A DNA stretch of 64,000 nt from Fidelibacterota bacterium (GCA_013203185.1 JABMOS010000118.1:23006-87005); one strand, 5' to 3'. Positions 8,788 through 37,994 are shown, numbered from the stretch's first letter. A program made the numbers and translations. Notes: generated by a model from the sequence alone, not told the origin.

Positions 8788-8822
8788 TTTTTATTTCCAG
8801 TCCATTTTCTGCTTCATACGTT

Positions 8823-9458: not shown

Positions 9459-9494
9459 TTTCTTTCTACTCTTCTCATATCGAACTCAGATAAC

Positions 9495-12365
9495 TCAAAA
9501 CGGATTCACCAGAGCCATTCTCAGATATGATCGGGCTAAAAAATCCTCATTTCTGAGATCATCCTCCCCAGCCCAATAATCAGCATCTCCTCCCCAGCCC
9601 CAGGCAAGGGTAACCAATGGAACCGTCGCCAGTGTTACATCAAATTTTAACTCAGCACCAAATGTTTCTATATGCGCTTCTGATTCAGGGATAAAACCAA
9701 AATCATAAAAAAGAGCTGAGGTCACATTTCCTATACCCAGGCTTAGAATATTAATAGGAGCCTTGTCAAGAATGGGCAAACGCAATTCAGCCGATGAAAA
9801 GATTAACTCGCTTCCAGCATATTGGCCATTTTGCCCCCTTAGGCTAAAGGATTCAGGGGCCGTAATTATTCCGGTGCTTTCAATGAACCTCAAATACTGC
9901 GTTGAAAAATACAGCGGGGCGGATTCTGAAAAACCCAACTTATCTTGCTCAAGGATATCTCCAGTTTGTCCCACATATTTCATGCGACCATATAAGACAA
10001 GAGGTACCCTGGGAATATCAAAGTTAAAGAACCCATCTAGCCAGTATTGGGAATAGTCGAGGTCTCCCCAGATTACTGAAGTAGCGCGCTCCACGTATGC
10101 CTGAATTCCAAGTCCATCATGTGGAAGACTATAGATATCTACATGAGGCCTTTGAGATTTCCAGGTGTAAGTGAGCCCGGTTTTAAACTCTTTTGGGGGT
10201 GAGTTGGTCGTCACTGCACCACCATCCATCATGACCACATTTCGGTTTGAGAATTGCAGTTTTGCCGTAAGGGTATGATTAGAAGAAAGCGATTCTCCAC
10301 TATTCCCAGGGAGGGATATCATTAGGTCAATTTCATCTCTTTGCTCCAGGAAGGAATGCATCGATGTGTTGGTAAAGTGATAAGCCACATTCTTGAATCC
10401 CATGACATGAATTGCAGGTCTAAACTGCAGGTTTGTATATCCGATATATGCACCTGGCATGGAACCATCCCACGGTATTTCAGCACCAGCCTGTAACAAA
10501 TGTTTCCCAAGAGCATCTTCTCCGGCCCCCAGTAGGAGCAAAGCATCACCCACAGGCCAGATAAACTTAAACAGAGGCCGCATTGTCTTTAGTGATTGAT
10601 ATGAGTGAGATTTTTGTGTTAGCAGTTCAGCGTTATAGTCAATTGGGGGCAGCTGAATTTCTGGTGCCTTTGTCCGCCATGCATTGAAAGGTTCTCTGAT
10701 CTGGAGGCCAAGAGAAGGAGCCACCCGAGAGTCTTCAACCACCATGATCCTTACTGTATCCACATCGGCCAGCGTAGATGAAATGATCCTGTTCGAATTG
10801 GGAAGTCTTTGTCTGGAATAAATCCCTTCTGCCACGTCTGTCATCTGGGTTACCTGAAGACTATCCATATCTACACGAAACAGATTGGGGGTTGAATTTC
10901 GATACGAGGTATACACAATGGCTGATCCATCACTTGACCAGACGGGATAGACATCTTCCTCTGGATCGTTGGTGACCTTTTGGAATTGAGTACCATCTAC
11001 ATTCATGATGGCGATATCCACATCACCTTTGATATCCTGAATCATAAACGCCAGCCTTTTTCCATCTGGTGCTAAATCGAGATCTTGAATCTGAATATCA
11101 CCTTCAAAGTGACTCATTTGGATTCGCTTCCCTGATTCAGTATTTTGATAGTAAATCTGTGTGGTTTCAGAGGGGTGAGCCACAAAAAAGACACCCTGTC
11201 CATCGTGAGAAAAAATTGGATGAAGCGCTCTGAAGTTTTGAGTGATCCAGCGACTCTTGCTTGTCTCTACATCAATGAGACGCAGATCATTCAGCAGTGA
11301 GCCATGGCTCCCACGATGATATTCGGCGACAACGAGTTGCTTTGAATCTGGAGACCAAGCGGGATCTCCATTGAACCGCCCGTAGTGAATTTCCTTTACC
11401 TGGTGAGTGGAGTCAGTGCTTTGCAAATACAGCCCATAGTCCCGCATTTTTCTGTCACGGCGACCGACAACTGCTATGGTTTCTACATCTGGTGATATTG
11501 ACGCGCTTTGCACGCTAGTGAAACCTGTGAGGGGAAGCACTTCTCCCACTTCCCCAATGGTCTCCTTTTGGGCTTTGTAACCGTAATAATATGTGTTCAT
11601 CGCGCGACGCCACTCTTCATTAAAAGCTTCAACCGTTTGCCCTGTAACCTCCTTGAAAGCAGCTTTGAAGTCATACCAGTATGGATATTTCTCTTTTTCT
11701 TTTAACAGATAAAGTCGGTGATGCGAGATTTTGACCAGGGTAGAATCACCATATTTCCATGCGAGATAGAGAACTTTTGCATAGCCATCATCGTGGGCAT
11801 CCAGCTCATTCATGCTGTTTCGATAGGTATGGATCTTCATCCGTGAATCGCTGCGACCAACGCGCCAAACTTCTGTCATGTATTCAGCCATGCCTTCAAT
11901 CCACCAGGCTGGGATGGAGAGGCCACCGAAAATCCCGGCCCAGGTTCGGTGAGCCTGGAATTGGACGATATGCTGAAATTCGTGGGTGACCACCAGCTTT
12001 AACCATTTGTCCGAACCCCCAAAATGTCCAGCCACATCATTCTGACTGACCCAGATAAATATTTGATTGCTGGGCATGGCAAAACCATTCATTATTTCAT
12101 CTTCAGCAGAAAAAACGATATCGGTTTTACCAAAATCTTTAACCTGGAGTTGATCCATAATGGGCTGATACGTCTGCTCGGCGATGAGAGCACCTTTTTC
12201 AGCCATGGTTTCCAGTCCCTGATGATAGTGGAGATTAAAATGCTCTGTTTCCAGGGTTTGCCATTTTAATTCTGGATGGGTACGTTGATTCCACATCCAC
12301 ATATTTTGGGCTGACAGGGACTGAGCCATGACAACTAGAGATATTATTATCAGCCTGATATTCAT
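9495..12365 (-). CDS. Secreted multidomain protein: HExxH peptidase-MA-like domain + TolB-like PD40 beta-propeller + C-terminal beta-barrel-like region
   Basis: Signal peptide MNIRLIIISLVVMAQSLSAQ (ATG at 12365). Zinc motif VTHEFQHIVQF with downstream WWIEGMAEY. PD40-type repeats (AWSPDSKQLVV, PIFSHDGQGVFFV, LAPDGKRLAF, PVWSSDGSAIVYTS). The last ~400 aa are strand-like and end ...LRMALVNPF. Confidence 0.6.
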   Translation of the reverse strand: MNIRLIIISLVVMAQSLSAQNMWMWNQRTHPELKWQTLETEHFNLHYHQGLETMAEKGALIAEQTYQPIMDQLQVKDFGKTDIVFSAEDEIMNGFAMPSNQIFIWVSQNDVAGHFGGSDKWLKLVVTHEFQHIVQFQAHRTWAGIFGGLSIPAWWIEGMAEYMTEVWRVGRSDSRMKIHTYRNSMNELDAHDDGYAKVLYLAWKYGDSTLVKISHHRLYLLKEKEKYPYWYDFKAAFKEVTGQTVEAFNEEWRRAMNTYYYGYKAQKETIGEVGEVLPLTGFTSVQSASISPDVETIAVVGRRDRKMRDYGLYLQSTDSTHQVKEIHYGRFNGDPAWSPDSKQLVVAEYHRGSHGSLLNDLRLIDVETSKSRWITQNFRALHPIFSHDGQGVFFVAHPSETTQIYYQNTESGKRIQMSHFEGDIQIQDLDLAPDGKRLAFMIQDIKGDVDIAIMNVDGTQFQKVTNDPEEDVYPVWSSDGSAIVYTSYRNSTPNLFRVDMDSLQVTQMTDVAEGIYSRQRLPNSNRIISSTLADVDTVRIMVVEDSRVAPSLGLQIREPFNAWRTKAPEIQLPPIDYNAELLTQKSHSYQSLKTMRPLFKFIWPVGDALLLLGAGEDALGKHLLQAGAEIPWDGSMPGAYIGYTNLQFRPAIHVMGFKNVAYHFTNTSMHSFLEQRDEIDLMISLPGNSGESLSSNHTLTAKLQFSNRNVVMMDGGAVTTNSPPKEFKTGLTYTWKSQRPHVDIYSLPHDGLGIQAYVERATSVIWGDLDYSQYWLDGFFNFDIPRVPLVLYGRMKYVGQTGDILEQDKLGFSESAPLYFSTQYLRFIESTGIITAPESFSLRGQNGQYAGSELIFSSAELRLPILDKAPINILSLGIGNVTSALFYDFGFIPESEAHIETFGAELKFDVTLATVPLVTLAWGWGGDADYWAGEDDLRNEDFLARSYLRMALVNPF

Positions 12366-12433
12366 TTTTTGTGTTGTGTTTTTGTAGAGATGCAATGCAT
12401 TGGGTTTCTACAAGCAATAATTTCGTATTCTGT

Positions 12434-13405
12434 TTAGAACAATTTCTTTATGATTTCATCCACCGAAACGCCATCAGCTTCAGCATTAAAATTGGTGAGA
12501 ACGCGGTGTCTTAGCACTGGGAGAGCCACCGCTTTGACATCATCAATTGATGGGGTTGGATTGCCCATCATAGCAGCTCGGGCTTTTGCCCCCAGTATGA
12601 GATATTGTGAAGCCCTGGGTCCCGCTCCCCAACCAACCCACTTTTGAATGAAATCAGGAGCATCATCTGAATCAGGTCGTGTTTTACCCACCAAGTCAAC
12701 AGCATAATCAATGACGTTGTCAGCAACCGGGACTCGACGAATGAGGTCCTGGTATTCCATGATAGCCTTTCTATCAAGAATTTTCTTCAATTGGACAGAG
12801 GCACCAGACGTGGTTTGATCCACAATCTGCCGTTCTTCGTCACGACTTGGATATTCGACTCGTAAGTTGAACATAAAACGATCAAGTTGGGCTTCAGGTA
12901 AGGGGTAGGTCCCTTCCTGCTCGATGGGGTTTTGCGTCGCCAGAACGAAAAAGGGTTCATCCAGGACATAGCTTTCCACGCCAGCAGTTACTCTATGCTC
13001 CTGCATGGCTTCCAACAGGGCTGCCTGAGTTTTGGGTGGCGTTCTGTTGATTTCATCAGCAAGAACGATATTGGCAAACACTGGCCCCTTTACAAAGCGA
13101 AACTCACGTTTACCGGTGGTGTGATCTTCTTCGATGATATCAGTACCGGTAATATCCGAAGGCATCAAATCGGGTGTAAACTGAATACGTGAGAAGGAGA
13201 GATCCAATACTTCGGCTAAACTTTTGATCAGTAAGGTTTTTGCGAGGCCAGGTACACCAACCAGAAGAGCGTGTCCCCTTGAAAGCATGGCTATGACCAA
13301 CTGCTCAATGACTTTGTTTTGCCCAACAATTGCCTTTGATAATTCATTTTTCAAGCGGTCAAAAGCATCAACCATTTCATTTAATTTTTTTACATCATCA
13401 GTCAT
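12434..13405 (-). CDS. moxR: MoxR-family AAA+ ATPase
   Basis: Walker A GVPGLAKT, Walker B/MoxR core VLADEINRTPPKTQAALLEAMQE, ATQNPIEQEGTYPLPEAQLDRF. The track start at 13414 is TTG; ATG at 13405 is preferred. Confidence 0.9.
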   Translation of the reverse strand: MTDDVKKLNEMVDAFDRLKNELSKAIVGQNKVIEQLVIAMLSRGHALLVGVPGLAKTLLIKSLAEVLDLSFSRIQFTPDLMPSDITGTDIIEEDHTTGKREFRFVKGPVFANIVLADEINRTPPKTQAALLEAMQEHRVTAGVESYVLDEPFFVLATQNPIEQEGTYPLPEAQLDRFMFNLRVEYPSRDEERQIVDQTTSGASVQLKKILDRKAIMEYQDLIRRVPVADNVIDYAVDLVGKTRPDSDDAPDFIQKWVGWGAGPRASQYLILGAKARAAMMGNPTPSIDDVKAVALPVLRHRVLTNFNAEADGVSVDEIIKKLF

Positions 13406-13607
13406 ATTTATCAATCACCTTCCGGAGCGGTTTAGAAATATATCCTTTAAAAAACCATCGTCATCAAACCCTTCGACAGGCTCAGGGAGACAAGTGTGTG
13501 TAGTGGATTTACAGATTGTCTTGCTGAGGCTCTCGAAGCATAGTATTTCGATTAATGATCAGAACCTATGCTTAGTTTTTTAATCACAAGGAAGTTATTT
13601 GTTCATA

Positions 13608-24988: not shown

Positions 24989-27349
24989 CTAGGCTTGAGA
25001 TTCAGTGACTTTCTGTAGTTCTCTGGCTCTGGTATAGAATTCTTCCAATTCCATCTCTTTGAGATAGACCAGCCCATGAGCGGCTCGAACACGTGGATGT
25101 GCATTTTCATACCAAAAATCGCGTCCCATTACCCTTTTCATATCCTGATGTTGTTGGACCTGAATGGCCTGCGCCAAACCTGAAAACGGTCCATTAAATT
25201 CATGACTGGGAAATGGGGCATCCACTTGTGATTGAAAACAATACTTGAAAGTTTCCTTCATGATGGCCATTGAGTTTAGAGATACGGGCACAAAAATATT
25301 GGCATCCGTCGGCTGAAATTTGAACCAGACATTGCGGTAACCCCAGACCCTTAACGATGCGGAGGGATGCCTCTCTTTATAGAGACGAATGGCTTCAGCA
25401 ATAGCCTGCATCACTTTGTAGTGGGTATCAGGACCGCTGGCTTCAGGGTCAAGTGCCAGCGTCACCACGGTTGGCCTAATTTTCTCCATGTACTCGAGAA
25501 TGGGCTGGACATCACGATCTATGGTGGGATCTTCAGTGAATATATCACCCTTATAAAAACCCAGACGCAGATGGTGAACATTTTTTATGGGGGTTCCATA
25601 ATGACCCCAAACCAGGTCAGCCTCCCATTCTCTGATACGCCCTTTTAGCAATTGCATGACAGGGTCATCTTTTTGACCGGGATAGCATGTATCCAGGTAT
25701 TCAATGAGCTCACCCATTTTCACGTGAAGCGTATCAAGATTAAAATCTGGATATAGAATCAGGAGATTACGGATAAGTCTCCGGGATGAGCCATTGTTTC
25801 GCAGGGTTTTGCTATGGTGAGCCACACCATCCAGATAGGTGTAAATATCTCGCTGGGCACCTGCCGCATTGTCAGCATCATAATAATTTTCTGCCTTAAG
25901 ACGATTAAACTGATCAGTTTCCATATGCTCCATGGCATTGAGGATTTGGTCTTTCACAAAATCATTGGTCACTGCATTAAAACCACTGGTCATGTACGCG
26001 AAATGATGTTCGTTTCGAGGGGTTCGTACGAGATGAACAATATGGGCGAGATATCCCAACATGATGTCGTCATGATGGGGGGCTGTGTGGAAAAACACAT
26101 CGTCTTGTATTGGTGTCAGCCCTCGAGTGAGTTTTGCATGGAGATTCTTGAAGATCCTTGCCTTGATCTCTGGGAGGGTGGCCTTGCTCCGCTTGAGGGC
26201 CATGGCCGGGACTTGTTTTTCTGCTACCTGGGCCTCAGTAATATCCTTAATAGGTGTTTGTGACCGCATGGAGAGCGTAATCAGGTGCTGATCTACAAGT
26301 TCTTCAGATACTTCATCAGCACTTTCAATTTCATGGACCTGTCTTCTGTCCAAAAATACTGCAGCCCCAGAAGTGATATAAAATCGAGCATTTCCCATGT
26401 TATGCAGGGCGCCAGCTGGATACATATTGCTGGCAGGTTCCTGGATAGATCCGGCTACGATTTTTGCCTTGGCTTCTCCTGCAGCAAAAATCAAACAGGT
26501 TGCATCCGGGTTGTGGGTAATGGTCTGAAGGCCAACAGTAATAACCAGACGCTTCTTAGAGACTTCAATGCCACCTAAATCACCAGCTGCGGCAGCTTGT
26601 GTTTCAAAATTTGTTGGTGTTAGACGGGTTGTCGAAAAATAGTCAGATCCGCGAACATTGAAGGCAATGTGGCCATCTGGTCCAATACCACCCAGAAAGA
26701 ACCCGATACCCCCTTTTTCCCGTATACGTCTTTCATACTCTGTGCAAAACTCATCAACCCGTTCAATGGCTTCCTTTTGTAAACGACCTTTGGTTGAGTT
26801 GGGTTGACTAAATCGCAGACCAAGATCAACCACATCATCAGGAAAGATCTCGCGATAATTCTTGCCCTGGGGCAGAATAATCTGTGTTGCATCAATGAGT
26901 TGCGCACGTTCTGCACTAATCCCAAAGCCATTGATATAATATTTCATCACATAATCAAAAAAGCTGTTGTGCTGGGTGGGAGATATGGGAAAGAACTCAT
27001 CTATCTGAACAAACTGTAGATTCTGCAGGTGAGGTTTTCGTGAATGATCAAGACCCACTTCCTCCAGGAAGGCACTGGTTAACTTGTCCTCCCAATTTTT
27101 CAAATAATATTCGGCATAGCGGATAAAATATTCAGGCGTTTTACCCGTGGGTAGAGAGACTACGCCTTCTGGATTATTCTGGACCCATTCCAAAAAGCGC
27201 AGAGCTGTTAATTGACCAAGATTTGGAAAATTACCTACCTGGATGACTGGAATTTTTTCATCCGGACTATACCTAAAATCAAGCTTCGAACGGTTCAGGA
27301 AATAGCTTTCTACAGGTGTGGGTGGATTAAAAATATTCTTTTTATTCAT
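24989..27349 (-). CDS. Long glucosamine-6-phosphate deaminase/isomerase family protein with C-terminal LmbE/PIG-L-like domain
   Basis: N-terminal NagB/6-phosphogluconolactonase-fold motifs (VVSLPTGKTPEYF; GGIGPDGHIAFN). The C-terminal half has TAPHHDDIMLGY (like the LmbE AHPDD motif) and DPEASGPDTH. ATG at 27349 is preferred to the track start at 27388. Confidence 0.7.
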   Translation of the reverse strand: MNKKNIFNPPTPVESYFLNRSKLDFRYSPDEKIPVIQVGNFPNLGQLTALRFLEWVQNNPEGVVSLPTGKTPEYFIRYAEYYLKNWEDKLTSAFLEEVGLDHSRKPHLQNLQFVQIDEFFPISPTQHNSFFDYVMKYYINGFGISAERAQLIDATQIILPQGKNYREIFPDDVVDLGLRFSQPNSTKGRLQKEAIERVDEFCTEYERRIREKGGIGFFLGGIGPDGHIAFNVRGSDYFSTTRLTPTNFETQAAAAGDLGGIEVSKKRLVITVGLQTITHNPDATCLIFAAGEAKAKIVAGSIQEPASNMYPAGALHNMGNARFYITSGAAVFLDRRQVHEIESADEVSEELVDQHLITLSMRSQTPIKDITEAQVAEKQVPAMALKRSKATLPEIKARIFKNLHAKLTRGLTPIQDDVFFHTAPHHDDIMLGYLAHIVHLVRTPRNEHHFAYMTSGFNAVTNDFVKDQILNAMEHMETDQFNRLKAENYYDADNAAGAQRDIYTYLDGVAHHSKTLRNNGSSRRLIRNLLILYPDFNLDTLHVKMGELIEYLDTCYPGQKDDPVMQLLKGRIREWEADLVWGHYGTPIKNVHHLRLGFYKGDIFTEDPTIDRDVQPILEYMEKIRPTVVTLALDPEASGPDTHYKVMQAIAEAIRLYKERHPSASLRVWGYRNVWFKFQPTDANIFVPVSLNSMAIMKETFKYCFQSQVDAPFPSHEFNGPFSGLAQAIQVQQHQDMKRVMGRDFWYENAHPRVRAAHGLVYLKEMELEEFYTRARELQKVTESQA

Positions 27350-27531
27350 GGCGTCATTATGGTTGAGAAAAAAGCAAATTACAACCATTTATTATGGGGT
27401 TCTGTTTCTATAAAGATAATATTATCAATGATCGCCCCTTATTGTTTGTTAGCTTTATTTACTAACTTAAAATAAATATTTATTGGAGATTAAGACCAAT
27501 GAGAAAATTGTAATCTCCGGGATTCTTGGCT

Positions 27532-28228: not shown

Positions 28229-29293
28229 ATGATGACACCGACCCTCGATTTAGTCTATTCAACGACCAAGGGATATGCCAGTCTACTCCCGCTTTTCTCA
28301 CACATGAAAACCCTGGGTTGGCAGGTGAGACTGGAGAAAGTCCATCGGAACTGTTTTCTGAATAGGCGACTGTTAAAATCGATCTCATCCATGATTGTTA
28401 TCGCATATGATAAACCCCTTGTCCGTCTGGAAAAATGTGGATGGGAAGGTGAGTTTATCTATATCGAGCATGGTCTCAGCCCCATGAAGTATTACACCTA
28501 CAAGTATGAATTCTTTCAGCGAGCTGCCCTCCTTTTTTATCCCGGCGAAGTCTTCAAACGCAAGATGGAAGCCATCAATCCTCAGTTTGTGCGTGGACTC
28601 CTGGGTGGCTATCCCAAGGTGGACGAACTGGTTAATTTGGAGATTAACAGAAATCAATTATGCTTGAGATACGGTTTAAATCCAGAAAAACCTGTCATTC
28701 TTTTTGCCCCCTCCTGGGGTGGCAAGAGGAACAAGAATTCTGGCATTCACAATGCCAAACACCTTTCCTCTCTGGAGAACCTGTTAATTGTTCCCCACTC
28801 CGCAGATTACTCCCTTGCCAAAAAATATGGAGCGGTAAAACCAGGAGATGGCAATATTAATCAGTTCCTCCATCTTGCCAATGTTGTGATTAGTGATATT
28901 TCCTCAGTACTTGCTGAAGCCTCTATTCTGGATAAGCCCGTAGTCCAACTCATCTTACCAGACTATCCAGGATGTTTTCCAGAGATCGAAAAACGGAAAT
29001 CAGGAACCTGGGTCTCTGAGGATGTCCTGGCTAAGGAGCAACGGACAGACCGTTCTAGCCGTCCGTTTAAAATCCCCTATATAGATGAAGACTGGATTAT
29101 GGGGCACACTGCTGAAGCTCAAGATCTGGAGGCAGCGATTCTGGATGCTCTTCAAAATCCTCACAAGTTCGCTGAGCAACGAAAATATTGGGCTGAGCAG
29201 AGCTGCTGGAAAGCTGATGGCAAATCATCAAGCCGGATCAGTCATATGATTGAGCAACTTTTAAAGGATGGTTCAATTACGCAGGTGGCGTAG
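28229..29293 (+). CDS. CDP-glycerol/ribitol glycerophosphotransferase-family protein (TagB/TagF-like)
   Basis: YIEHGLSPMKYY (cf. WHG...K), VILFAPSWGG (cf. ILYAPTWR), LIVPHS, and VISDISSVLAEASILDKPVV (cf. SDYSS...D...kPii). Starts 16 nt after ispD. Confidence 0.6.
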   Translation: MMTPTLDLVYSTTKGYASLLPLFSHMKTLGWQVRLEKVHRNCFLNRRLLKSISSMIVIAYDKPLVRLEKCGWEGEFIYIEHGLSPMKYYTYKYEFFQRAALLFYPGEVFKRKMEAINPQFVRGLLGGYPKVDELVNLEINRNQLCLRYGLNPEKPVILFAPSWGGKRNKNSGIHNAKHLSSLENLLIVPHSADYSLAKKYGAVKPGDGNINQFLHLANVVISDISSVLAEASILDKPVVQLILPDYPGCFPEIEKRKSGTWVSEDVLAKEQRTDRSSRPFKIPYIDEDWIMGHTAEAQDLEAAILDALQNPHKFAEQRKYWAEQSCWKADGKSSSRISHMIEQLLKDGSITQVA

Positions 29294-29420: not shown

Positions 29421-30101
29421 GTGAGAGCAATAATTCTAGCAGCCGGTATAGGTTCCCGCCTTGGGAATCCTCGTCCCAAGCCTCTGACTAAACTTTCCAC
29501 AGGGGAAATGATTATGGGCAGACAGGTTGAATATCTGAAACAAGTTGTCTCGGTAGATGACATCTTTGTTGTGATTGGTTTTAAAAAAGACCTCATCATG
29601 GAAGAATTTTCAGAACTGACCTATGTGTTTAATAATGTCTATGACAGAACAAATACTTCAAAAAGCTTGCTGAAGGCCATGCGCAAAGTCAGGGCAGATG
29701 ATGTCATCTGGCTCAATGGTGATGTGGTATTTGATCCTGAAGTACTGGCTAGAGTAGTTGCTTCAAAAACGTCATGCATGGCAGTCAACACCTCGTCAGT
29801 GGCAGAAGAAGAGGTCAAATACACCCTGTCCACCGATGGTTCAATTAATGAAGTTTCAAAAACTGTACAAAATGCCCTTGGTGAGTCCGTAGGTATCAAT
29901 AAAATTATATCCAGTGATGTGCCACTCTTCATAGAGATGCTGGAACGTTGTGATGATAATGATTATTTTGAACGTGGCATCGAATTCGCCATCAATGCTG
30001 GTTTGAAAATTTATCCTGTTGATGTATCAGATGTCCTTTGCATTGAGGTTGACTTCACCGAAGACCTTGAAAAAGCCAACAATGAACTAGGAGAGGCGTG
30101 A
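29421..30101 (+). CDS. LicC-like sugar/alcohol-phosphate nucleotidyl(cytidylyl)transferase
   Basis: MRAIILAAGIGSRLG...PKPL is the N-terminal NTP-transferase signature. Overall collinearity with pneumococcal LicC as recalled. GTG start with AAGGTG upstream. Confidence 0.65.
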   Translation: MRAIILAAGIGSRLGNPRPKPLTKLSTGEMIMGRQVEYLKQVVSVDDIFVVIGFKKDLIMEEFSELTYVFNNVYDRTNTSKSLLKAMRKVRADDVIWLNGDVVFDPEVLARVVASKTSCMAVNTSSVAEEEVKYTLSTDGSINEVSKTVQNALGESVGINKIISSDVPLFIEMLERCDDNDYFERGIEFAINAGLKIYPVDVSDVLCIEVDFTEDLEKANNELGEA

Positions 30102-31183
30102 GCGATTCCTTTTCCAAAACGCTAAAGGTCTTCCAACAATCAAATTTACGCTATACGATGGGCGCTGAATCACTGGTTGGATTTGTGGAAGGTGATATAT
30201 ACAAGTACACCCACAACCTGCGCATCTACCTATTCCCCACTTCTGCCTTTCGACTTGTATTTCTGGCCCTTAAGCTATTAAAGTCAGGTGTTATTTTTAA
30301 ACCCAAATTTAGCCAGGGGCACCTTTATTATAAGCTGAGGTACAAACCGAGTCTCCTGGGTAAGGAATCGACTTTCATTTCCATCACGCCTCTGGAAGCC
30401 ACCAAGGGGGGGTTCGTTGCATTTTTAGGTGGGCATGACACGTTTTTTTCAATCGAAGACCTAAACGAATCCACCCTTAAGAAAATTGAGCTGAATGATC
30501 TCTCGATTATGGCTCCAGCAGCCTACACTAATTTTGAACAAAAATACCGCATGGAATTGATGTCCGGGTTTTACCAGAAACATGAGGTTCAGTTTGATTC
30601 TGAGTCTGAGAAAAAAGCTATCCGCTTCATGCATGAGAACGTGTCTGTAATGACTGAGGCTGGCATTGATTTTTGGATAGAAGGCGGCACCCTTCTCGGG
30701 GCCTTACGCGATAATAAACTAATTCCCTGGGATCATGATCTTGACTTTGGAATGAAGTACGAATCTGAAATCCAAATGAAGCGACTTATTCGAAAGTTAC
30801 GCCGCCATTTTAATGTGAGTGTGAGATCCTTTCCCAAGACCTCCAAAATCTGGCATCTGGGAAACTATCGAGTTCTAAAAATATTTCCACGCAAACACCT
30901 GTTCTTTAAGGAAGATTTGTGTCTAGATCTCTTTGTTTACTACAAGGGCACCCTGCCTGGCAAGGATGAGGTTGTCTACAAATATGTAGTCTGGGACAGA
31001 AATGCCTACCACCGCAAGGAATTCTTTGAAACCACAGATACTCTTAATTTTTATGGCGGTGAGGTGCCCATCCCTGCCAATGCAGAACAGTTTATCGAAG
31101 TCAAATATGGCAAGGATTGGCGAACACCTATTAAGGAATGGAATGTCGCCCTTGATGATGGATCCATTTACAAAGAAGATTAA
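30098..31183 (+). CDS. LicD/fukutin-family phosphotransferase (phosphocholine or polyol-phosphate transferase)
   Basis: FWIEGGTLLGALRDNKLIPWDHDLDFGM (LicD/FKRP core with DxD) and a C-terminal VPIPANAEQFIEVKYGKDWRTP. GTGA overlap with the LicC-like gene. The ~190-aa N-terminal region has no assignment. Confidence 0.75.
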   Translation: MSDSFSKTLKVFQQSNLRYTMGAESLVGFVEGDIYKYTHNLRIYLFPTSAFRLVFLALKLLKSGVIFKPKFSQGHLYYKLRYKPSLLGKESTFISITPLEATKGGFVAFLGGHDTFFSIEDLNESTLKKIELNDLSIMAPAAYTNFEQKYRMELMSGFYQKHEVQFDSESEKKAIRFMHENVSVMTEAGIDFWIEGGTLLGALRDNKLIPWDHDLDFGMKYESEIQMKRLIRKLRRHFNVSVRSFPKTSKIWHLGNYRVLKIFPRKHLFFKEDLCLDLFVYYKGTLPGKDEVVYKYVVWDRNAYHRKEFFETTDTLNFYGGEVPIPANAEQFIEVKYGKDWRTPIKEWNVALDDGSIYKED

Positions 31184-31186
31184 GAT

Positions 31187-31819
31187 ATGACTCATTTCAC
31201 TATTAAGGATCTTCCGCAAGAGTATCAGTTTCTAAAAGACTCCTCCATCCTCATCATTGGGAATGGACCCAGTGCCGCCAAGCATGAGATGGGCAGAGAG
31301 ATTGACAAGTTTGATCAGATCATCAGAATTAACAACTATGTCACCGATCACATGGAATCACGGGTTGGCTCGCGGACAGACATCTGGGTAAATGGTGCCA
31401 ATCAGGGCTTAAAAAAACGACTCACGTTACCCGAAAAGATATTGGTGATGATACCTCCTGTCGTGTTGAATCATAAGGGGGTAGCCATTCACCGCCGCAT
31501 TGAAAACCGACTTGGATCGAAAAATTATACGCTGCTGCCACTGGAAATCATGTCTGAGATGGAATCATCATGTGGGCTTGATCGACCAACAACAGGATTC
31601 TTTACCATATATTTCTTCTATTTATTAGGGCTTGATGTCACACTTCACGGTTTCGATTTCTTCGTCGGATCAACTGCTCACTATTTTGATAGTCCCCTCA
31701 AGCGGTGGCTCAAGGAGAAGGGAATTATCAAGAAGGCAGTCAAGCACGATGTGGTCGGTGAAAAAGTATTCATTGAGACCCTCATCCAGAAGGGAGGAGT
31801 AAAAGTTTTACATGCCTAG
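31187..31819 (+). CDS. GT29-like (eukaryote-type) sialyltransferase homologue
   Basis: Four motifs in GT29 order: L-like ILIIGNGPS...GREIDKFDQIIRINN...ESRVGSRTD; S-like PTTGFFTIYFFYLLGLDVTLHGFDFF; III-like HYFD; VS-like KHDVVGE (H-x4-E). Starts 3 nt after licD-like. No signal peptide or TM segment. Confidence 0.6.
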   Translation: MTHFTIKDLPQEYQFLKDSSILIIGNGPSAAKHEMGREIDKFDQIIRINNYVTDHMESRVGSRTDIWVNGANQGLKKRLTLPEKILVMIPPVVLNHKGVAIHRRIENRLGSKNYTLLPLEIMSEMESSCGLDRPTTGFFTIYFFYLLGLDVTLHGFDFFVGSTAHYFDSPLKRWLKEKGIIKKAVKHDVVGEKVFIETLIQKGGVKVLHA

Positions 31820-32701
31820 CTAACTTCGTTTCAAGGTGAGCAGTACCAGACCTGATAGCGTGATTGCTCCCCCGATTATCACATTCAATCCAACCAATTC
31901 ACCAAAGAATATATAGGCCAGAACCGAAGCCAGAACCGGTTCCCCAAAAGGCATAGAACCAACAATTGTTGGACGAAGATATTTGACGGCATAGCTCATA
32001 CTATTATGCCCAATGAGGGTTGGTAAAACAACCAGTCCAAACAGCCATTTTGTATCTGCCTGCTGAAAGCTTATGTCAATTCCCATACTGAAAATTATTA
32101 ACGCTAAGGTAAGGGCAGCGAATAAGTATAGCCAGCGTGTGTACATGATATTGGTAATTTCACTGCGCACACGTTGAGCAATGATAAGTACCACTGACAT
32201 GAAGGCAGAACTGGCCAGGGCATAGAAATTTCCTTTAGTAGCTTCTGAGCCCCATTCAAATCCAGTCCCCTGGACAATAACAGCACCTGCTATGGCCATC
32301 CAAAGGCCAAACAGTGCTCCCACAGGGAACTTGTGCTTCAACGCAAAGCGCTCATAGGCAAGGGTAAAGATGGGTGCCAGAGTGGCAAAGAGGGTGGCAC
32401 TTGCAATTGAGGTCGACTTGACAGCAGAATAGAAAAATGCAAAATGAAGGGCCAGGAAAATCCCGGCAACGATAATCGCAGGAAATTTGTTTTTTGCCAG
32501 TGGTGCCTGCCTCTTGATGGCCCCATGACTCCACAATAGAGTTGATGCTCCAGCCATGCGCCAAAATGCAATAGTTAGTGCAGCGAGCTCTGGAAGGAAC
32601 CGGGCAAGGGGAGCTCCAAAGCTGACCCCCAGAAGCCCAAATACAAGCATGACATAAATCCTGTTATTCATAGCTTTGAACATAATCGTGGTGAATGTCA
32701 T
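31820..32701 (-). CDS. EamA/DMT-superfamily transporter
   Basis: Ten hydrophobic segments in two EamA-like halves. The track start at 32809 is a TTG that would overlap the divergent neuA start; in-frame ATGs at 32701, 32683 and 32671 are more plausible. Confidence 0.75.
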   Translation of the reverse strand: MTFTTIMFKAMNNRIYVMLVFGLLGVSFGAPLARFLPELAALTIAFWRMAGASTLLWSHGAIKRQAPLAKNKFPAIIVAGIFLALHFAFFYSAVKSTSIASATLFATLAPIFTLAYERFALKHKFPVGALFGLWMAIAGAVIVQGTGFEWGSEATKGNFYALASSAFMSVVLIIAQRVRSEITNIMYTRWLYLFAALTLALIIFSMGIDISFQQADTKWLFGLVVLPTLIGHNSMSYAVKYLRPTIVGSMPFGEPVLASVLAYIFFGELVGLNVIIGGAITLSGLVLLTLKRS

Positions 32702-32802
32702 GGACACGTATTGATTAAGCTCCTGCCCTACAAATCTGATTCCACTGGGAGTGATTAAAAAATTGTGGGCTGTGATGGGCGTCTCTTCATATATATTGGG
32801 GG

Positions 32803-33486
32803 ATGTCAATTTTTTGTATTATTCCTGCTCGCGGTGGTTCCAAAGGGGTTCCACATAAAAACATAGCTCCATTTTTAGGACAGCCTTTGATCAGCCACAC
32901 CATCAAGTATGCTCTCGCATCCAAATTTGTTGATGGCGTCTTTGTTTCCACTGACGATGAGGAGATTTCTAAGATATCCACAAGTGATGGTGCACAGGTA
33001 ATTCCGAGACCAGCTGAGATCGCTGGTGATACTGCTACCACAGAGTCTGCTATTTCACATGCAATTGGATGGTGGCAAGAGCAGAACTTAACCCCGGATA
33101 TCATTGTTTTATTGCAGGCAACAAGTCCACTTCGGCCCACAGGCTCACTGGACGAGGCTCTGGATAAGTTTAAGGATGGGGGTTTCGACTCCTTACTTAG
33201 TATCTCGCCCACACATCGGTTTTTCTGGAGTGTAAATGGGAAAGTAGCACGCGCTGAATACGATTTTATGAACCGGCCTAGACGTCAGGATATGAACGAA
33301 GCTGACATCAGATATGTTGAGAATGGATCTGTTTACATTTTTTCATTGGACCATTTCCAGCGCACAGAGAATAGACTTGGTGGAAAGATCGGGTATACCA
33401 TTTTCCCCGAAGAATTCAGCCCGGAGATAGATATTCCAAGTGACTTTACTTTGCTGGAAGAGATTGCTGAAAATTTAATCAGGTAG
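32803..33486 (+). CDS. neuA: CMP-sialic acid (N-acylneuraminate/KDN) cytidylyltransferase
   Basis: IIPARGGSKGVPHKNI, LLQATSPLR, RPRRQD and VENGSVYIF. The last two strings also occur in animal CMAS as I recall it. Confidence 0.85.
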   Translation: MSIFCIIPARGGSKGVPHKNIAPFLGQPLISHTIKYALASKFVDGVFVSTDDEEISKISTSDGAQVIPRPAEIAGDTATTESAISHAIGWWQEQNLTPDIIVLLQATSPLRPTGSLDEALDKFKDGGFDSLLSISPTHRFFWSVNGKVARAEYDFMNRPRRQDMNEADIRYVENGSVYIFSLDHFQRTENRLGGKIGYTIFPEEFSPEIDIPSDFTLLEEIAENLIR

Positions 33487-33503: not shown

Positions 33504-34565
33504 TTGGAGGTTGCTTTGCCAACTTTACAACTAGGCTCACAAACCGTTGGTGAGAATGATCCAACCTACATTATCGCTGAGATAGGTATTAATCATCAGG
33601 GTGAAGTAGAGATTGCAAAAAAACTGATCAAAGAAGCTGCTCATGGTGGCGCAAATGCAGTAAAATTTCAAAAGCGCAGCATCAAGCGCATCTTGACCCA
33701 CGAAGGTCTTGAAATGCCCTACGATAATCGCAATTCATTTGGCAAGACCTACGGCGAACATAAAAAAGCCTTAGAGCTGTCTGAGTCCGATTATCAGGAA
33801 CTCATGAATTATGCCAGTGAGCATAATGTCGACTTTATTGCCTCAGGGTGGGATGAAGAGAGTATCGATTTTCTTGATGAATTGGGTGTACCATTTTTCA
33901 AAATGGCTTCAGCCGATCTAACCAACATACCCCTGCTTATTCATACTGCAAAAAAGAACAAGCCAATGATTCTTTCCACAGGGATGGCAAACATGGAAAT
34001 GGTAGAAACTGCTGTTAATGCTATCAAGCCATTTGACGTTCCCCTGTGTATTCTCCAATGCACATCAACATATCCATCAGTTTTTGAAGAGGTTAATCTC
34101 GGTGTTATTAACACTTTCAAGCAACATTTTCCACAAGCTGTTATTGGCTATTCAGGTCATGAATTAGGAATTGCCATCACTGAAGCAGCTGTGGCCCTTG
34201 GAGCAAAGATTGTGGAACGCCATTTCACATTAGATAGGACCATGAAGGGTGGGGACCATGCCGCATCTCTTGAACCAGGTGGTTTTTCAAAGCTGGTCCG
34301 AGATATAAGACATATCGAGGTCGCCATGGGTGGGCCGACTAAACAGATTCAAGCATCGGAAGCACCCATTTTCAAGAAGTTAGCTAAAAGCGTCGTTTCC
34401 CTGGTAGAGCTGTCTGCAGGCACTATTCTGACGAGGGATATGCTTACTACCAAGGGACCTGGAACCGGCATTTCACCTGCAAGAATGGATGAACTATTGG
34501 GAAAAATGGTGATTAATGATATTGCTGCCGATGTGGTACTCAAGGACGAAGACATCAACTGGTAA
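33504..34565 (+). CDS. neuB: Nonulosonic acid synthase of the NANS (9-phosphate) type: Neu5Ac-9-P/KDN-9-P synthase-like, with C-terminal SAF domain
   Basis: YIIAEIGINHQGE, FGKTYGEHKKALELS, PFFKMAS, LQCTSTYP, IGYSGHELGIAITEAAVALGAKIVERHFTLD and GGDHAASLEPG. Collinear with human NANS as recalled (GYSGHE rather than the GxSDH of NeuB). TTG start. Confidence 0.8.
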   Translation: MEVALPTLQLGSQTVGENDPTYIIAEIGINHQGEVEIAKKLIKEAAHGGANAVKFQKRSIKRILTHEGLEMPYDNRNSFGKTYGEHKKALELSESDYQELMNYASEHNVDFIASGWDEESIDFLDELGVPFFKMASADLTNIPLLIHTAKKNKPMILSTGMANMEMVETAVNAIKPFDVPLCILQCTSTYPSVFEEVNLGVINTFKQHFPQAVIGYSGHELGIAITEAAVALGAKIVERHFTLDRTMKGGDHAASLEPGGFSKLVRDIRHIEVAMGGPTKQIQASEAPIFKKLAKSVVSLVELSAGTILTRDMLTTKGPGTGISPARMDELLGKMVINDIAADVVLKDEDINW

Positions 34566-34577
34566 ACAGGAGAGCAA

Positions 34578-35075
34578 ATGATATCTGAAGAACTTCGGGC
34601 TAAAGCTCAAAAGATCAAATTGGTAATAACGGATATTGATGGTGTCTGGACAGATGCAAAAATCTATTACACAGAGCATGGCGAATTAATGAAAGCCTTC
34701 AGCTATTATGATGGCATGGGAACAGCCCTCTTAACCAAAGCCAACATTAGAACAGCCATCATAACCGGTGAAAATTCCAAGCCAGTGGCTCAACGAGCCA
34801 AGAAGCTGAAAATCGAAGATGTCTTCCTGGGGATAGATGATAAGCTGGAAGTTTTTGAGTCCCTTCTTGAGAAGTATCAGCTCTTACCCTCAGAAGTAGC
34901 CTACATTGGTGATGATTTGAATGACTACACCGTCATGCAGGTCGCAGGCCTTACTGCAGTCCCCTCAAGCACGCCAGCCTTTCACATTCTCAAACCCGAC
35001 ATTTTATTGAGCCGTGCAGGGGGTGATGGCGCCTTCCGCGAATTTGCCGATCTCATCATCGCATCGCAGCAATGA
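34578..35075 (+). CDS. HAD-IIIA C0-type phosphatase, KdsC family (KDO-8-P or KDN-9-P/Neu5Ac-9-P phosphatase)
   Basis: KLVITDIDGVWTD (motif I), ITGE, IGDDLND and GGDGAFREF. 165 aa with no cap domain. Starts 12 nt after the synthase; ATGA overlap with waaA. Confidence 0.8.
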   Translation: MISEELRAKAQKIKLVITDIDGVWTDAKIYYTEHGELMKAFSYYDGMGTALLTKANIRTAIITGENSKPVAQRAKKLKIEDVFLGIDDKLEVFESLLEKYQLLPSEVAYIGDDLNDYTVMQVAGLTAVPSSTPAFHILKPDILLSRAGGDGAFREFADLIIASQQ

Positions 35076-36343
35076 AAATACTTTTTTATTCTTTCTACAA
35101 TCTTCTTCTTTTAATAGCTATACCAGTCTTTTGGATCGGAGCTTTTTTTAATAGCAAACTTGGCGGCAGTTTTACTGGCCAGAAGGATATTACTTCAAGA
35201 GTTATACGTTTTAAGGATAAAGTTAATTCTAACCCCAAACCTATCATTTGGACTCATTCTGCCTCAGCAGGAGAGTTTGAGCAAATGCGTCCAGTTTTAT
35301 CACGGCTATCTAAAATGGATGTGTACATCTTCCAGACTTTCACTTCAGCTACAATCTATTACAAAGCCTCACAGAATAAGATTTTCCATGGTGTCTGCTT
35401 TTTACCCTGGGATCTATATTCTAGAGTGAATCGTTTCGTTACACTTCTCAAGCCCGACTTATTCATTAATACCAGACATGATATCTGGCCGAATCTCCAA
35501 CTTTCAGTCCAGCGCAATCAGATCAGAAATATTTTAATCAATGCAAACCTATATCAGGATTCGAAACGACTCCTCCCTCTCTTTCGTGGGATCAACTCGC
35601 TTGTATTTAATCAAATCAATCACATTTATACTGGATCATCTACTCTTGAATCCCTGCTCAAGCAAATCTATGCTGGTCCGATTGATGTGGTAGGTGACTC
35701 ACGGTTCGACCAAGTTCAGGAAAGAGCTCTCAGCAACACAGAAATGTTGATAACTGAGGATTTGCTTGCTGACCGACGGGTCGTTGTATATGGTTCCGTA
35801 GGTGATACAGATTTAAAAATTATCACAGCGGCTATTGCTCAGGCTAATACCAATAGGGCTTTCATGCATATTATCGTACCCCATGAAACTGCTGAACGGG
35901 ATCTCATTCCCTGGGAGGCTGAACTCTTTCGCCAAAAGGTAAAATCCATACGAAAATCTGAGATTGATCAGTTCAAAGATGAAACCGTCATGATTTGGGA
36001 TAGCGTGGGACAATTGGCCGACTTGTATAAATATGCTAATCTGGCATTTATTGGAGCAGGATTTGGTGCTGGAGTACACTCTGTTACAGAAGCAGCCATA
36101 TTCAATGTCCCCTGTTCACATGGCCCCAAATATGACATCCTCGCTGAAGCAATAGATTTGGTTAATGAAGGTCTCTCAACAGTGACAAATGAAGTTCCGG
36201 ACCTCATCAGCTTTTTAACCATGCCCGACACTAGCATCACCGAGCTCTCATTGAAAATTGAATCCTTTGTCAAGCATCGACTTGGAGCCACTGATAAAAT
36301 ATTTGAAAACGAACCCCTTCTGAGATCTTTTATTCCACGATAA
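35072..36343 (+). CDS. waaA: 3-deoxy-D-manno-octulosonic acid transferase family (GT30)
   Basis: N-terminal membrane-associated helix, PIIWTHSASAGEFEQMRPVLSRL (cf. WaaA SVSVGE), LPWDL, TRHDIWPNL and INANL, collinear with E. coli WaaA as recalled. Confidence 0.8.
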   Translation: MKILFYSFYNLLLLIAIPVFWIGAFFNSKLGGSFTGQKDITSRVIRFKDKVNSNPKPIIWTHSASAGEFEQMRPVLSRLSKMDVYIFQTFTSATIYYKASQNKIFHGVCFLPWDLYSRVNRFVTLLKPDLFINTRHDIWPNLQLSVQRNQIRNILINANLYQDSKRLLPLFRGINSLVFNQINHIYTGSSTLESLLKQIYAGPIDVVGDSRFDQVQERALSNTEMLITEDLLADRRVVVYGSVGDTDLKIITAAIAQANTNRAFMHIIVPHETAERDLIPWEAELFRQKVKSIRKSEIDQFKDETVMIWDSVGQLADLYKYANLAFIGAGFGAGVHSVTEAAIFNVPCSHGPKYDILAEAIDLVNEGLSTVTNEVPDLISFLTMPDTSITELSLKIESFVKHRLGATDKIFENEPLLRSFIPR

Positions 36344-37994
36344 AATCAAATAGTAACTCCTGGCCGAAATCTGGTGGGAAAGACAGCAGCGTATCTCCAG
36401 ACATCGATTCAAAGAGCACTAATCCATCCATCCCTACCTGGCTGGGTGCCGCGTTCCTGTTCCACCAATGTCGTGATATCCCATCTTCCATCTCATCACT
36501 GAATTTGAACTGATACATGCCCTTGGCTAAATCAACAGGTATTCTATAGTTTGTGCTGTCCTTAAAATCATCCATATAGTACCAGATCAACCCTGACATA
36601 TCACTAATATAGTATTTATTCTCTGCCGAACGCCCGAGGTTATTTGTTTGTATGGATAGAACAAACTTATGAGGAAAACTAACGGGCTTTTGAAAGTGTG
36701 AAGTTAAAGTATTGTTTTCAGGGTATTCATCAAGCATTGGTTTGGGAAGTACAAGATGCACCTGAAACCTTCCAGATTCCCTCATCTGTTTCCTACTCAA
36801 TGCTGGAAGAACGACTTCTTCGGATTCAAGGAACTCTAGATTGCCTTTCCAGTTAAATTTCTTCTTCCTATGTCCTGCAATTCCATAAGTAATATTCAAA
36901 TCCCTTATGGGATATGCTCCCTCATTTTTGATAATTATGATTGGATTACCACCACTGGGATTCATTCTTGAATATTGGTCTTTAGCGTTGGGTACAAGTA
37001 TCTGAACAACAGCAGCATTATAATTGAAATGTGGTGGGCCAAAGCTGAACAATTGGTGGCTCATCCTCAAGGTTCCATCCTTTTCCCCATTGTCCATAAA
37101 TGGTTCAATAGTATAGTCCAGAGTAATGGTGTCTCCAGGGGATACTTTTGGTGTCAGTTCAAACATGTATTCATCTACTTTTGTTCCTGGGCACCAACCA
37201 GCCCTATCAAATGCCCAGGTTCCACCTTGTGGATATATTGGATTATTCCCACAATCTTTCCATACATTCCATCTGTAGGTCTCCCAACTGTTTAAACGGT
37301 AGGTATGAGTCTTGCTATCCCATTCACAGCAATTGTATGGCCCTGCATGACCATGTCCTGATATAGTCGCTTTGAGACTGAAAGCTGCGGCCGCCTCAGA
37401 AAGTACAATCTGCCTTTCTTTTAATAAGCTATCTGTAGAAAGATATTCGTACTTATACTCCCCATAAGGATACACGTTTTCTACTGACAACACCTGTCTT
37501 GCAGGTGTTCCTCGAATAAACAGAAACTGCAGGTTTAGCAATTCTTGGTTATTGCCTGCAATTATATTACGAGCGCCCTTTAGGAGCGGCGCATACTCAG
37601 TTATATCATACACCCACTTCCAACCGCTCTCACCTCCAAGTTTTAATCGTTTCCCATATGGCGTGACAAAACTTCCAAGTGTGAATAGCTCTGTACTATC
37701 CCCCTGTGGAACTTCGATAAATATATTCCAAATGTAATCCCACTCACCACATGGGTATGCATCACCAGCAGTGGCAGTATCACATTTTAAGGTCTGAACC
37801 ATAAATATTTGCGACCACCTGCTATCATCATCAGGAAAGTTGACAACTGTTTTATACTGTGCATTCCACCCCAATGGGCTTGGTTCATCAAAAGTAATGG
37901 GGGTGAATTGTAAGGTGTCACCAGACCAGGATTGACTTAAGCAAACTGACAATGGTGACCCAGTAACTAGTATAAATAGCAATACTCGATACAT
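36330..37994 (-). CDS. Secreted PNGase F-like peptide-N-glycosidase (glycoamidase) with ~220-aa C-terminal extension
   Basis: Signal peptide MYRVLLFILVTGSPLSVCLSQ. Collinear with Elizabethkingia PNGase F as recalled: CGEWDY (CDEWDR), LGSFVTPYG (IGRFITPY), TISGHGHAG (TISGWGHA), CCEWD (CAEW) and AFDRAGWCPG (APDRAGWCPG). Confidence 0.7.
   Translation of the reverse strand: MYRVLLFILVTGSPLSVCLSQSWSGDTLQFTPITFDEPSPLGWNAQYKTVVNFPDDDSRWSQIFMVQTLKCDTATAGDAYPCGEWDYIWNIFIEVPQGDSTELFTLGSFVTPYGKRLKLGGESGWKWVYDITEYAPLLKGARNIIAGNNQELLNLQFLFIRGTPARQVLSVENVYPYGEYKYEYLSTDSLLKERQIVLSEAAAAFSLKATISGHGHAGPYNCCEWDSKTHTYRLNSWETYRWNVWKDCGNNPIYPQGGTWAFDRAGWCPGTKVDEYMFELTPKVSPGDTITLDYTIEPFMDNGEKDGTLRMSHQLFSFGPPHFNYNAAVVQILVPNAKDQYSRMNPSGGNPIIIIKNEGAYPIRDLNITYGIAGHRKKKFNWKGNLEFLESEEVVLPALSRKQMRESGRFQVHLVLPKPMLDEYPENNTLTSHFQKPVSFPHKFVLSIQTNNLGRSAENKYYISDMSGLIWYYMDDFKDSTNYRIPVDLAKGMYQFKFSDEMEDGISRHWWNRNAAPSQVGMDGLVLFESMSGDTLLSFPPDFGQELLFDFIVE

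Follow-up and report, generated by a model that had tools for sequence, protein, structure and literature searches.

A compact GT29-family glycosyltransferase linked to predicted nonulosonate synthesis genes in Marinimicrobia and other bacteria

Bacterial proteins of glycosyltransferase family 29 (GT29) were described by Petit et al in 2018 as carrying all four sialylmotifs but neither a transmembrane domain nor the disulfide and conserved cysteines (PMC5811610). Their set comprised 23 sequences, mostly alpha-proteobacterial, and a bacterial origin of the eukaryotic GT29 enzymes was proposed (PMC5811610) and repeated in a 2023 review (PMC10225777). The gene considered here lies in a stretch of 64,000 nucleotides (the window; Fidelibacterota bacterium, GCA_013203185.1 JABMOS010000118.1:23006-87005) from an uncultured marine bacterium of the Marinimicrobia (SAR406). 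The open reading frame (ORF) at 31187..31819 (+) has an ATG start that is kept in an alignment of 28 homologues (alignment A1), and its 210-residue translation is exactly that quoted in an initial annotation of the sequence. That annotation took GT29 to be essentially eukaryotic or viral, which is contradicted by the bacterial proteins published in 2018 and by an NCBI entry from a Marinimicrobia metagenome-assembled genome that is 100% identical to the window protein and already named 'glycosyltransferase family 29 protein'. Family membership itself is therefore known; what is new is a GT29 subfamily of the Fibrobacterota-Chlorobiota-Bacteroidota (FCB) group and its conserved operon link to genes of predicted nonulosonate synthesis. 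The protein is probably a cytoplasmic, minimal-core, inverting GT29 enzyme that transfers a nonulosonate, its donor supplied by the adjacent genes, onto a surface glycan.

The protein matches the Pfam profile PF00777 (Glyco_transf_29) with 57.7 bits and E = 1.6e-15, 2.5-fold above the gathering score of 23 and far beyond chance. Neither the Pfam model for GT42 (CST-I) nor that for MptE/DUF115 (PF01973) matched it at E ≤ 10, and no NCBIfam model matched it. The initial annotation had proposed that these families be compared by profile and that the predicted fold be set against known sialyltransferases, and on both counts the comparison comes out in favour of GT29. With a single sequence, a phmmer search of the PDB is marginal (rat ST6Gal1 at E = 9e-4 through motif L alone, pig ST3Gal-I also marginal), and motifs S, III and VS emerged only with a family profile built from the 28 homologues of A1. 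This profile finds ST3Gal-I at E = 1e-7 (35 bits) across both halves, with motifs L, S, III and VS covered, and ST6GalNAc2, ST8Sia3 and ST6Gal1 at E 3e-5 to 7e-4.

The AlphaFold2 model calculated from A1 has a predicted local distance difference test score (pLDDT) of 88.7 and a predicted template modelling score (pTM) of 0.87. It is weakest at residues 161-190 (pLDDT 66-78), between motifs III and VS, which would seem to coincide with the place of the mobile lid in sialyltransferases. When the PDB was searched with Foldseek, the best 30 of 30 matches were animal GT29 enzymes (E 7e-9 to 4e-5, probability 1.0, query template modelling score (TMq) 0.54-0.64), and model and matches together identify the GT-A variant 2 sialyltransferase fold. 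Rank 31 is an MptE-type HPPK of M. jannaschii (8sd5, E = 9e-4), thiamin pyrophosphokinases are also among the next matches after GT29, and a weak MptE-like segment occurs in some multi-domain relatives, which would fit an MptE/DUF115-type enzyme, acting as a pterin pyrophosphokinase or, like Maf, as a transferase of nonulosonic acid to flagellin. Such an assignment is extremely improbable, given fold E-values 4-5 orders of magnitude worse than those of GT29, the lack of a PF01973 match for the window protein and the presence of all four sialylmotifs in invariant form.

The four sialylmotifs are found where the initial annotation had located them, except that motif III follows motif S after 6 residues and not after about 10. 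The gene and its motifs are as follows.

31187..31819, + strand: compact GT29-family glycosyltransferase, 210 residues, soluble, no anchor (PF00777, AlphaFold, Foldseek, NCBI identity)
31244..31390, + strand: sialylmotif L, residues 20-68 (S20-V68), with GNGPS, EID, RINN and VGSRT, aligned to ST6Gal1 and ST3Gal-I
31586..31663, + strand: sialylmotif S, residues 134-159 (P134-F159), PTTG...HGFDFF, aligned to ST3Gal-I PSTG...YGFG
31679..31690, + strand: sialylmotif III, residues 165-168, HYFD, aligned to ST3Gal-I HYWE
31745..31762, + strand: sialylmotif VS, residues 187-192, H-D-V-V-G-E, with the putative catalytic base H187, aligned to ST3Gal-I

Motif L (SILIIGNGPS...RINN...VGSRTDIWV) also aligns with those of ST6GalNAc2 and ST8Sia3 in the profile search of the PDB. 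Among the 28 homologues of A1, with identity down to 41%, the invariant residues are G27, S29, R47, N49, N50, G61 and T64 in motif L (28 of 28), T136, G137 and G155-F159 in motif S, H165, Y166 and D168 in motif III, and K186, H187 and E192 in motif VS. Profile alignment with pig ST3Gal-I, in which the residue number is taken as chain index + 45, an inferred offset that reproduces the published N150, N173, H302 and H319, gives these pairs.

N26: pig ST3Gal-I N150
N49: pig ST3Gal-I N173
T135-T136-G137: pig ST3Gal-I S271-T272-G273
H165/Y166: pig ST3Gal-I H302/Y303
H187: pig ST3Gal-I H319 (catalytic)
E192: pig ST3Gal-I E324

At the level of sequence the putative active site is thus recovered, with the VS histidine on H319 and the motif III His-Tyr pair on H302/Y303. 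In GT29 enzymes it is the histidine of motif VS that serves as catalytic base (PMC10225777).

The same family profile also reaches the bacterial GT42 enzyme Cst-II, at E = 3e-6 (30 bits) and over both halves. The GNGPS motif is identical in Cst-II and in both cases the motif is placed near the N-terminus; motif S aligns with Cst-II ITSG...SGIDFY, and F159 and Y166, the latter in motif III, align with Cst-II Y156 and Y162. The LicD-containing genomic setting resembles that of lipooligosaccharide decoration in Haemophilus. These likenesses could mean that the true kinship and function lie with GT42 (Cst-I/II, Lic3A-like) and that the GT29 label is a profile artefact. This is very unlikely, since PF00777 is matched well above its cut-off with nothing for CST-I, no Cst-II chain occurs among the Foldseek PDB matches at E ≤ 1e-3 against the 30 GT29 chains, and both H-x4-E and EID...R.N...VGS(K/R)T are GT29 signatures and invariant here. 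None of the computational comparisons that could have refuted a GT29 assignment did so, and GT29 is therefore favoured.

The protein is a compact version of the GT29 core. The Pfam match in relatives spans profile positions from about 59 to 271 of 272, motif L begins at residue 20, the only cysteine (C129) is not conserved in the 28 homologues, and there is no transmembrane or signal segment, the maximum 19-residue Kyte-Doolittle mean being 1.39; the absence of a membrane anchor noted in the initial annotation is borne out. Together these features define a core without the N-terminal 60-80 or so residues, the stem, the anchor or the disulfide between motifs L and S of the animal enzymes. With bacterial GT29 proteins also lacking it, this disulfide marks the animal branch and not the GT29 family. 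A core of this kind should express in E. coli.

Close homologues number 82, nearly all of 208-215 residues, and all 82 carry PF00777, as do the 10 of 10 distant or fused relatives examined. Relatives are encoded at 44 loci in GTDB species representatives. The majority belong to Neomarinimicrobiota, and the other labels are Lentisphaeria, Gemmatimonadota, Cloacimonadota, Eisenbacteria, Chitinispirillum and Flavobacteriaceae. Orthologues are 58-80% identical in Marinimicrobia loci, 43-52% in Gemmatimonadota and Cloacimonadota and 37-39% in Flavobacteriaceae. The GT29 reference sequences came from optical character recognition text, and the alignable region has about 90 residues. With the A1 profile, the proteins that Petit et al described from Alteromonas, Idiomarina and Roseomonas score 32-49 bits, about the level of pig ST3Gal-I. 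Such scores against the proteobacterial GT29 proteins indicate that the window family is a separate bacterial subfamily, and, judged by sequence, it is a distinct GT29 subfamily of the FCB group. More widely, 4,789 clusters formed at 50% identity are reached by the profile with E ≤ 1e-3, of which 1,219 have E ≤ 1e-10; lengths of 180-215 residues are frequent, and some members are fusions with GT4, DUF4422 or a second domain. Compact GT29 domains of 180-220 residues are abundant in metagenomes, phages and giant viruses and occur also in bacteria, so that the small size, which the initial annotation had presented as a novelty, is not one.

One of the relatives lies on a phage-like contig (L045; Logan SRR7589087, 54.5 kb) with a faint Gp23 capsid match, DUF2786 and many small ORFs. 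Its gene at 6001-7158 encodes a two-domain protein of 385 residues, GNG-type in the N-terminal domain and GT29 in the C-terminal domain, flanked by three methyltransferases, NeuB and a CTP_transf_3 gene. The position of this GT29 gene beside NeuB and CTP_transf_3 marks the group as a virus-borne cassette for nonulosonic-acid synthesis and transfer.

The genes around the window GT29 gene form a conserved module.

28229..29293, + strand: TagF/TarB-like protein of the CDP-glycerol glycerophosphotransferase family (PF04464; TarB match weak)
29421..30101, + strand: NTP_transf_3 nucleotidylyltransferase in a LicC-like slot (PF12804)
30098..31183, + strand: LicD-family phospho-alcohol transferase (PF04991; NCBIfam Mf1 cholinephosphotransferase-like)
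31820..32809, - strand: EamA/DMT-family transporter, between the GT29 and CMP-synthetase genes (PF00892)
32803..33486, + strand: CMP-nonulosonate synthetase of the CMP-sialic-acid-synthetase type, CTP_transf_3 (PF02348; PDB matches)
33504..34565, + strand: NANS-like nonulosonate-9-phosphate synthase, NeuB family with SAF domain (PF03102 and PF08666)
34578..35075, + strand: HAD phosphatase of KdsC/KDN-9-P type (NCBIfam and PDB matches)
35072..36343, + strand: GT30-like (WaaA/Kdo-transferase-like) glycosyltransferase (PF04413)

The proximity to genes for the supply of a cytidine monophosphate (CMP) sugar, pointed out in the initial annotation, is confirmed, with synthetase, NANS-like synthase and phosphatase in the same cluster. 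In a phmmer survey of synteny at the 44 loci, the genes for GT29, CMP-synthetase, NeuB, HAD and the GT30-like enzyme occur together in every phylum sampled, the CMP-synthetase gene being linked to GT29 in 38 of the 44 and the GT30-like gene accompanying NeuB-HAD in every phylum. The linkage survives inversion of the gene order (L015, L029 and L031) and its permutation in Flavobacteriaceae (L041-43). LicD, with its stop codon 3 nt ahead of the GT29 start, is directly upstream of GT29 in most of the loci; the TagF-like gene is kept at the upstream edge of the module, and upstream one usually finds the TagF-like, nucleotidylyltransferase and LicD genes. Housekeeping genes flank the module.

This arrangement bears on whether the gene could have come recently from a eukaryotic or giant-virus source, or be a contaminant of the assembly. 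Petit et al suggested in their supplement that lateral gene transfer from eukaryotes might account for the NANS-like genes of Marinimicrobia, Chitinispirillum and Flavobacteriaceae (PMC5811610), and compact GT29 proteins do occur in ChoanoV1 and in phages. The GC content is uniform at 0.40-0.46 throughout the module and the flanking DNA, the gene is closely packed in an operon of otherwise bacterial genes, only 3 nt behind LicD, and the same synteny recurs in 44 species-level genomes with identity falling with lineage. A recent foreign origin is highly improbable and largely refuted by the uniform GC and the deep synteny, evidence that concerns a recent event only.

The donor sugar can be narrowed from the neighbouring genes. 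The NeuB homologue is 49% identical to human NANS (326 bits), compared with 31-41% to NeuB/PseI/SpsE-type synthases in the reference set, and 64-72% identical to sequences from Chitinispirillum, Flavobacteriaceae and Marinimicrobia to which Petit et al assigned a sister position to eukaryotic NANS (PMC5811610). The best PDB matches of the synthetase are CMP-N-acetylneuraminic acid (CMP-Neu5Ac) synthetases (6ifd, 122 bits; mouse CMAS, 103 bits), with KdsB at about 30 bits, and it is assigned on these scores to the CMAS/NeuA type, not to KdsB. The HAD protein reaches 167 bits against the NCBIfam model for phosphatases of the 9-phosphate of ketodeoxynonulosonic acid (Kdn or KDN), whose cut-off is 180, and 157 bits against the KdsC subfamily, whose cut-off is 107; in the PDB the B. 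thetaiotaomicron KDN9P phosphatase BT1713 (3e81) and E. coli KdsC match it about equally. The 9-phosphate route leads to Kdn in B. thetaiotaomicron and P. parvum and to Neu5Ac in humans (PMC6200933). No NeuC, NanE or N-acetylmannosamine (ManNAc) kinase was found in the 64-kb window, and no ManNAc-supplying gene in the conserved core or the window, which favours Kdn, as negative evidence from 64 kb only. The NANS-like synthase, the CMAS-type synthetase, the 9-phosphate route and the lack of ManNAc supply would make CMP-Kdn the most economical donor, with CMP-Neu5Ac as the alternative.

Residues 91-152 of the CMP-synthetase also match designer pentatricopeptide-repeat proteins (cPPR-Telo1, E = 5e-12), with no single stretch significant. 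Rather than homology, it is probably a fortuitous match of '...GSLDEALDKFKDGGF...', amplified by the repetitive target.

The phosphatase and the GT30-like protein could also be read as parts of a pathway for the eight-carbon sugar 3-deoxy-D-manno-octulosonic acid (Kdo). On this reading the GT29 protein would transfer Kdo or a Kdo-like sugar, working with the WaaA-like enzyme on the inner core of lipopolysaccharide (LPS), and the HAD protein would be KdsC, whose subfamily cut-off it does pass. Plant GT29-like proteins have been proposed to transfer Kdo or 3-deoxy-lyxo-heptulosaric acid (Dha) and to use CMP-Kdo, and a GT30/WaaA-like gene is always present in the module; the GT30-like protein scores 117 bits with the WaaA NCBIfam models, far under their cut-offs, and matches Aquifex WaaA (2xci) weakly. 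Against this, the co-conserved synthase belongs to the NeuB/NANS family and not to KdsA, the cytidylyltransferase prefers CMP-Neu5Ac synthetases to KdsB by the scores given above, and neither KdsA nor KdsB was found in the 64-kb window. A Kdo transferase is accordingly unlikely.

For a nonulosonate transferase the following scheme may be envisaged. The NANS-like synthase would make a 9-phosphate sugar, the KdsC/KDN-9-P-type phosphatase would remove the 9-phosphate and the CMP-sialic-acid-type synthetase would activate the nine-carbon product, most economically Kdn made from mannose-6-phosphate and alternatively Neu5Ac. By analogy with the solved GT29 enzymes, motifs L and S would hold the CMP-sugar donor, motif III (H165/Y166) would contact and stabilise the phosphate leaving group of CMP, and H187 of motif VS would serve as general base, taking the proton from the acceptor hydroxyl, in a transfer expected to be inverting, metal-independent and SN2-like. 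Kdn or Neu5Ac would be placed on a lipid-linked surface glycan, either the LPS core or a capsule-like polymer, built with the GT30-like, LicD, nucleotidylyltransferase and TagF-like enzymes. Two candidate acceptors may be suggested, the Kdo of the LPS core and a phospho-polyol polymer. Petit et al cite marine bacteria whose cores carry neuraminic acid on Kdo (PMC5811610).

Several points weigh against this scheme. GT42 Cst-II scores almost as high with the family profile as ST3Gal-I (30 and 35 bits), which puts the protein between GT29 and GT42 and makes it not purely animal-type. The disulfide cysteines, the N-terminal 60-80 or so residues and the membrane anchor of the animal enzymes are absent, and acceptor recognition therefore cannot be carried over from these enzymes. 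As no biochemically characterised bacterial GT29 was found in the searchable literature, the activity is assigned by homology only. The scores of the HAD protein fit KdsC and KDN-9-P phosphatase alike, and both the NeuB homologue and the synthetase fall below the NCBIfam equivalog cut-offs (NeuB, PseF/KdsB), and thus the sugar could be other than Kdn or Neu5Ac.

The upstream part of the module is more variable than the rest. At several Marinimicrobia loci (L007, L010, L014, L016 and L019) the TagF-like, nucleotidylyltransferase and LicD genes give way to far more distant counterparts, and an IspD/TarI-like enzyme takes the place of the nucleotidylyltransferase in some of the loci; this trio scores about two-fold lower, while GT29, CMP-synthetase, NeuB, HAD and the GT30-like protein are still highly similar. 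The trio looks like a phospho-alcohol cassette that can be exchanged, as happens in serotype variation. In the window, the LicD profile matches only residues 187-229 of the 361-residue protein, through the first 45 or so positions of the profile, and neither the first 170 residues nor the last third of the protein can be assigned to a family. LicA, the choline kinase that would complete a lic1-type phosphocholine pathway, was not found in the 64-kb window. The EamA transporter of the drug/metabolite transporter (DMT) superfamily occurs at this position only in Marinimicrobia-like loci, and its annotated TTG start, which overlaps the start of the divergent CMP-synthetase gene, is probably too far upstream. 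The DMT superfamily includes the choline permease LicB and the eukaryotic nucleotide-sugar (CMP-sialic acid) transporters.

Three further observations concern the surroundings of the module. Directly downstream, at 36330-37994 (-), is a gene for a 554-residue protein with a Peptide-N-glycosidase F C-terminal domain (PF09113, 51.6 bits), kept at that position in most Marinimicrobia loci. Just upstream, at 24989-27388 (-), lies a gene for a 799-residue protein with no Pfam match at E ≤ 1e-3 and 200 bits to NCBIfam PRK02122 ('glucosamine-6-phosphate deaminase-like protein'); it is kept there in Marinimicrobia and could possibly supply an amino-sugar or hexose-phosphate precursor. Further away, a cluster at 7891-13414 (-) encodes a MoxR-type AAA ATPase (bpMoxR), a large PD40 beta-propeller, a HAD_2 hydrolase and a DUF58/VWA protein; it resembles the MoxR-vWA-beta-propeller ternary systems and is unrelated to GT29.

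Literature searches on sialic acid in Marinimicrobia/SAR406 and on PF00777 in bacteria gave only Petit et al (2018) and reviews citing it, and no report of GT29 in Marinimicrobia or other FCB-group taxa, or of operon linkage between GT29 and a NANS-like pathway, was found in the searchable literature. The range of GT29 now takes in the Marinimicrobia and further ocean-abundant phyla of the FCB group, and the operon ties the enzyme to the NANS-like 9-phosphate route, which is otherwise typical of eukaryotes and of Kdn synthesis in Bacteroides. This link provides a concrete donor hypothesis and a better data set on the origin of eukaryotic sialylation. It is conceivable, though doubtful, that the FCB-group operon gathers at a single bacterial locus the complete sialylation/Kdn pathway of the eukaryotic type. 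In that case the machinery of eukaryotes might have been transferred in one block, either from an FCB-like lineage to early eukaryotes or the reverse, which would replace the 2018 proposal that GT29 alone arrived from alpha-proteobacteria, and the 210-residue enzyme would represent the minimal ancestral GT29 catalytic core. In practical terms, a very small, anchor-free GT29 core without conserved cysteines is an attractive first target for the biochemistry of bacterial GT29 enzymes and possibly for enzyme engineering.

Compared with the animal GT29 enzymes of known structure (pig ST3Gal-I, 2WNB; human ST6GalNAc-II, 6APL; ST8Sia-III, 5BO9; ST6Gal-I, 4JS1), the window protein has in common PF00777, the GT-A variant 2 fold, the four sialylmotifs in the same order, the VS histidine and the motif III His-Tyr pair, at an identity of 14-19%. 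The animal catalytic domains have about 270-300 residues against 210 here, and they include Pfam positions 1-58, a type II anchor with stem and the L-S disulfide, all of which the window protein lacks; the animal enzymes are Golgi-lumenal, whereas the window protein would be cytoplasmic. Closer in size is the viral GT29 protein of Mimiviridae sp. ChoanoV1 (A0A5B8IFN6, 220 residues), which superposes over near the full length of both proteins (TMq 0.68; target template modelling score (TMt) 0.66), and uncultured Caudovirales (tailed phages) also encode compact GT29-fold proteins; these compact viral proteins are about 21% identical to the window protein and are found in a different genomic context. 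Cst-II of Campylobacter jejuni, a GT42 alpha-2,3/2,8-sialyltransferase (1RO7), is likewise bacterial and soluble or peripheral, with its motif near the N-terminus, and shares the identical GNGPS and the aligned aromatic residues past motif S, but it does not have the H-x4-E motif of the window protein.

The proteobacterial GT29 proteins that Petit et al described (Alteromonas, Idiomarina, Roseomonas, Rhizobium and others) are also compact (220-330 residues) and, like the window protein, have four sialylmotifs and neither a transmembrane domain nor conserved cysteines. The window family comes from other phyla, namely Marinimicrobia and other FCB-group lineages; Petit et al listed no GT29 from these taxa and reported no operon link to a NANS-like synthase. 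The Kdn pathway of B. thetaiotaomicron and Prymnesium parvum and the human NANS-NANP-CMAS route use a 9-phosphate synthase, a phosphatase and a CMP-synthetase, as in the window. Unlike these routes, the window brings the three genes together in one conserved operon with GT29 and a GT30-like transferase.

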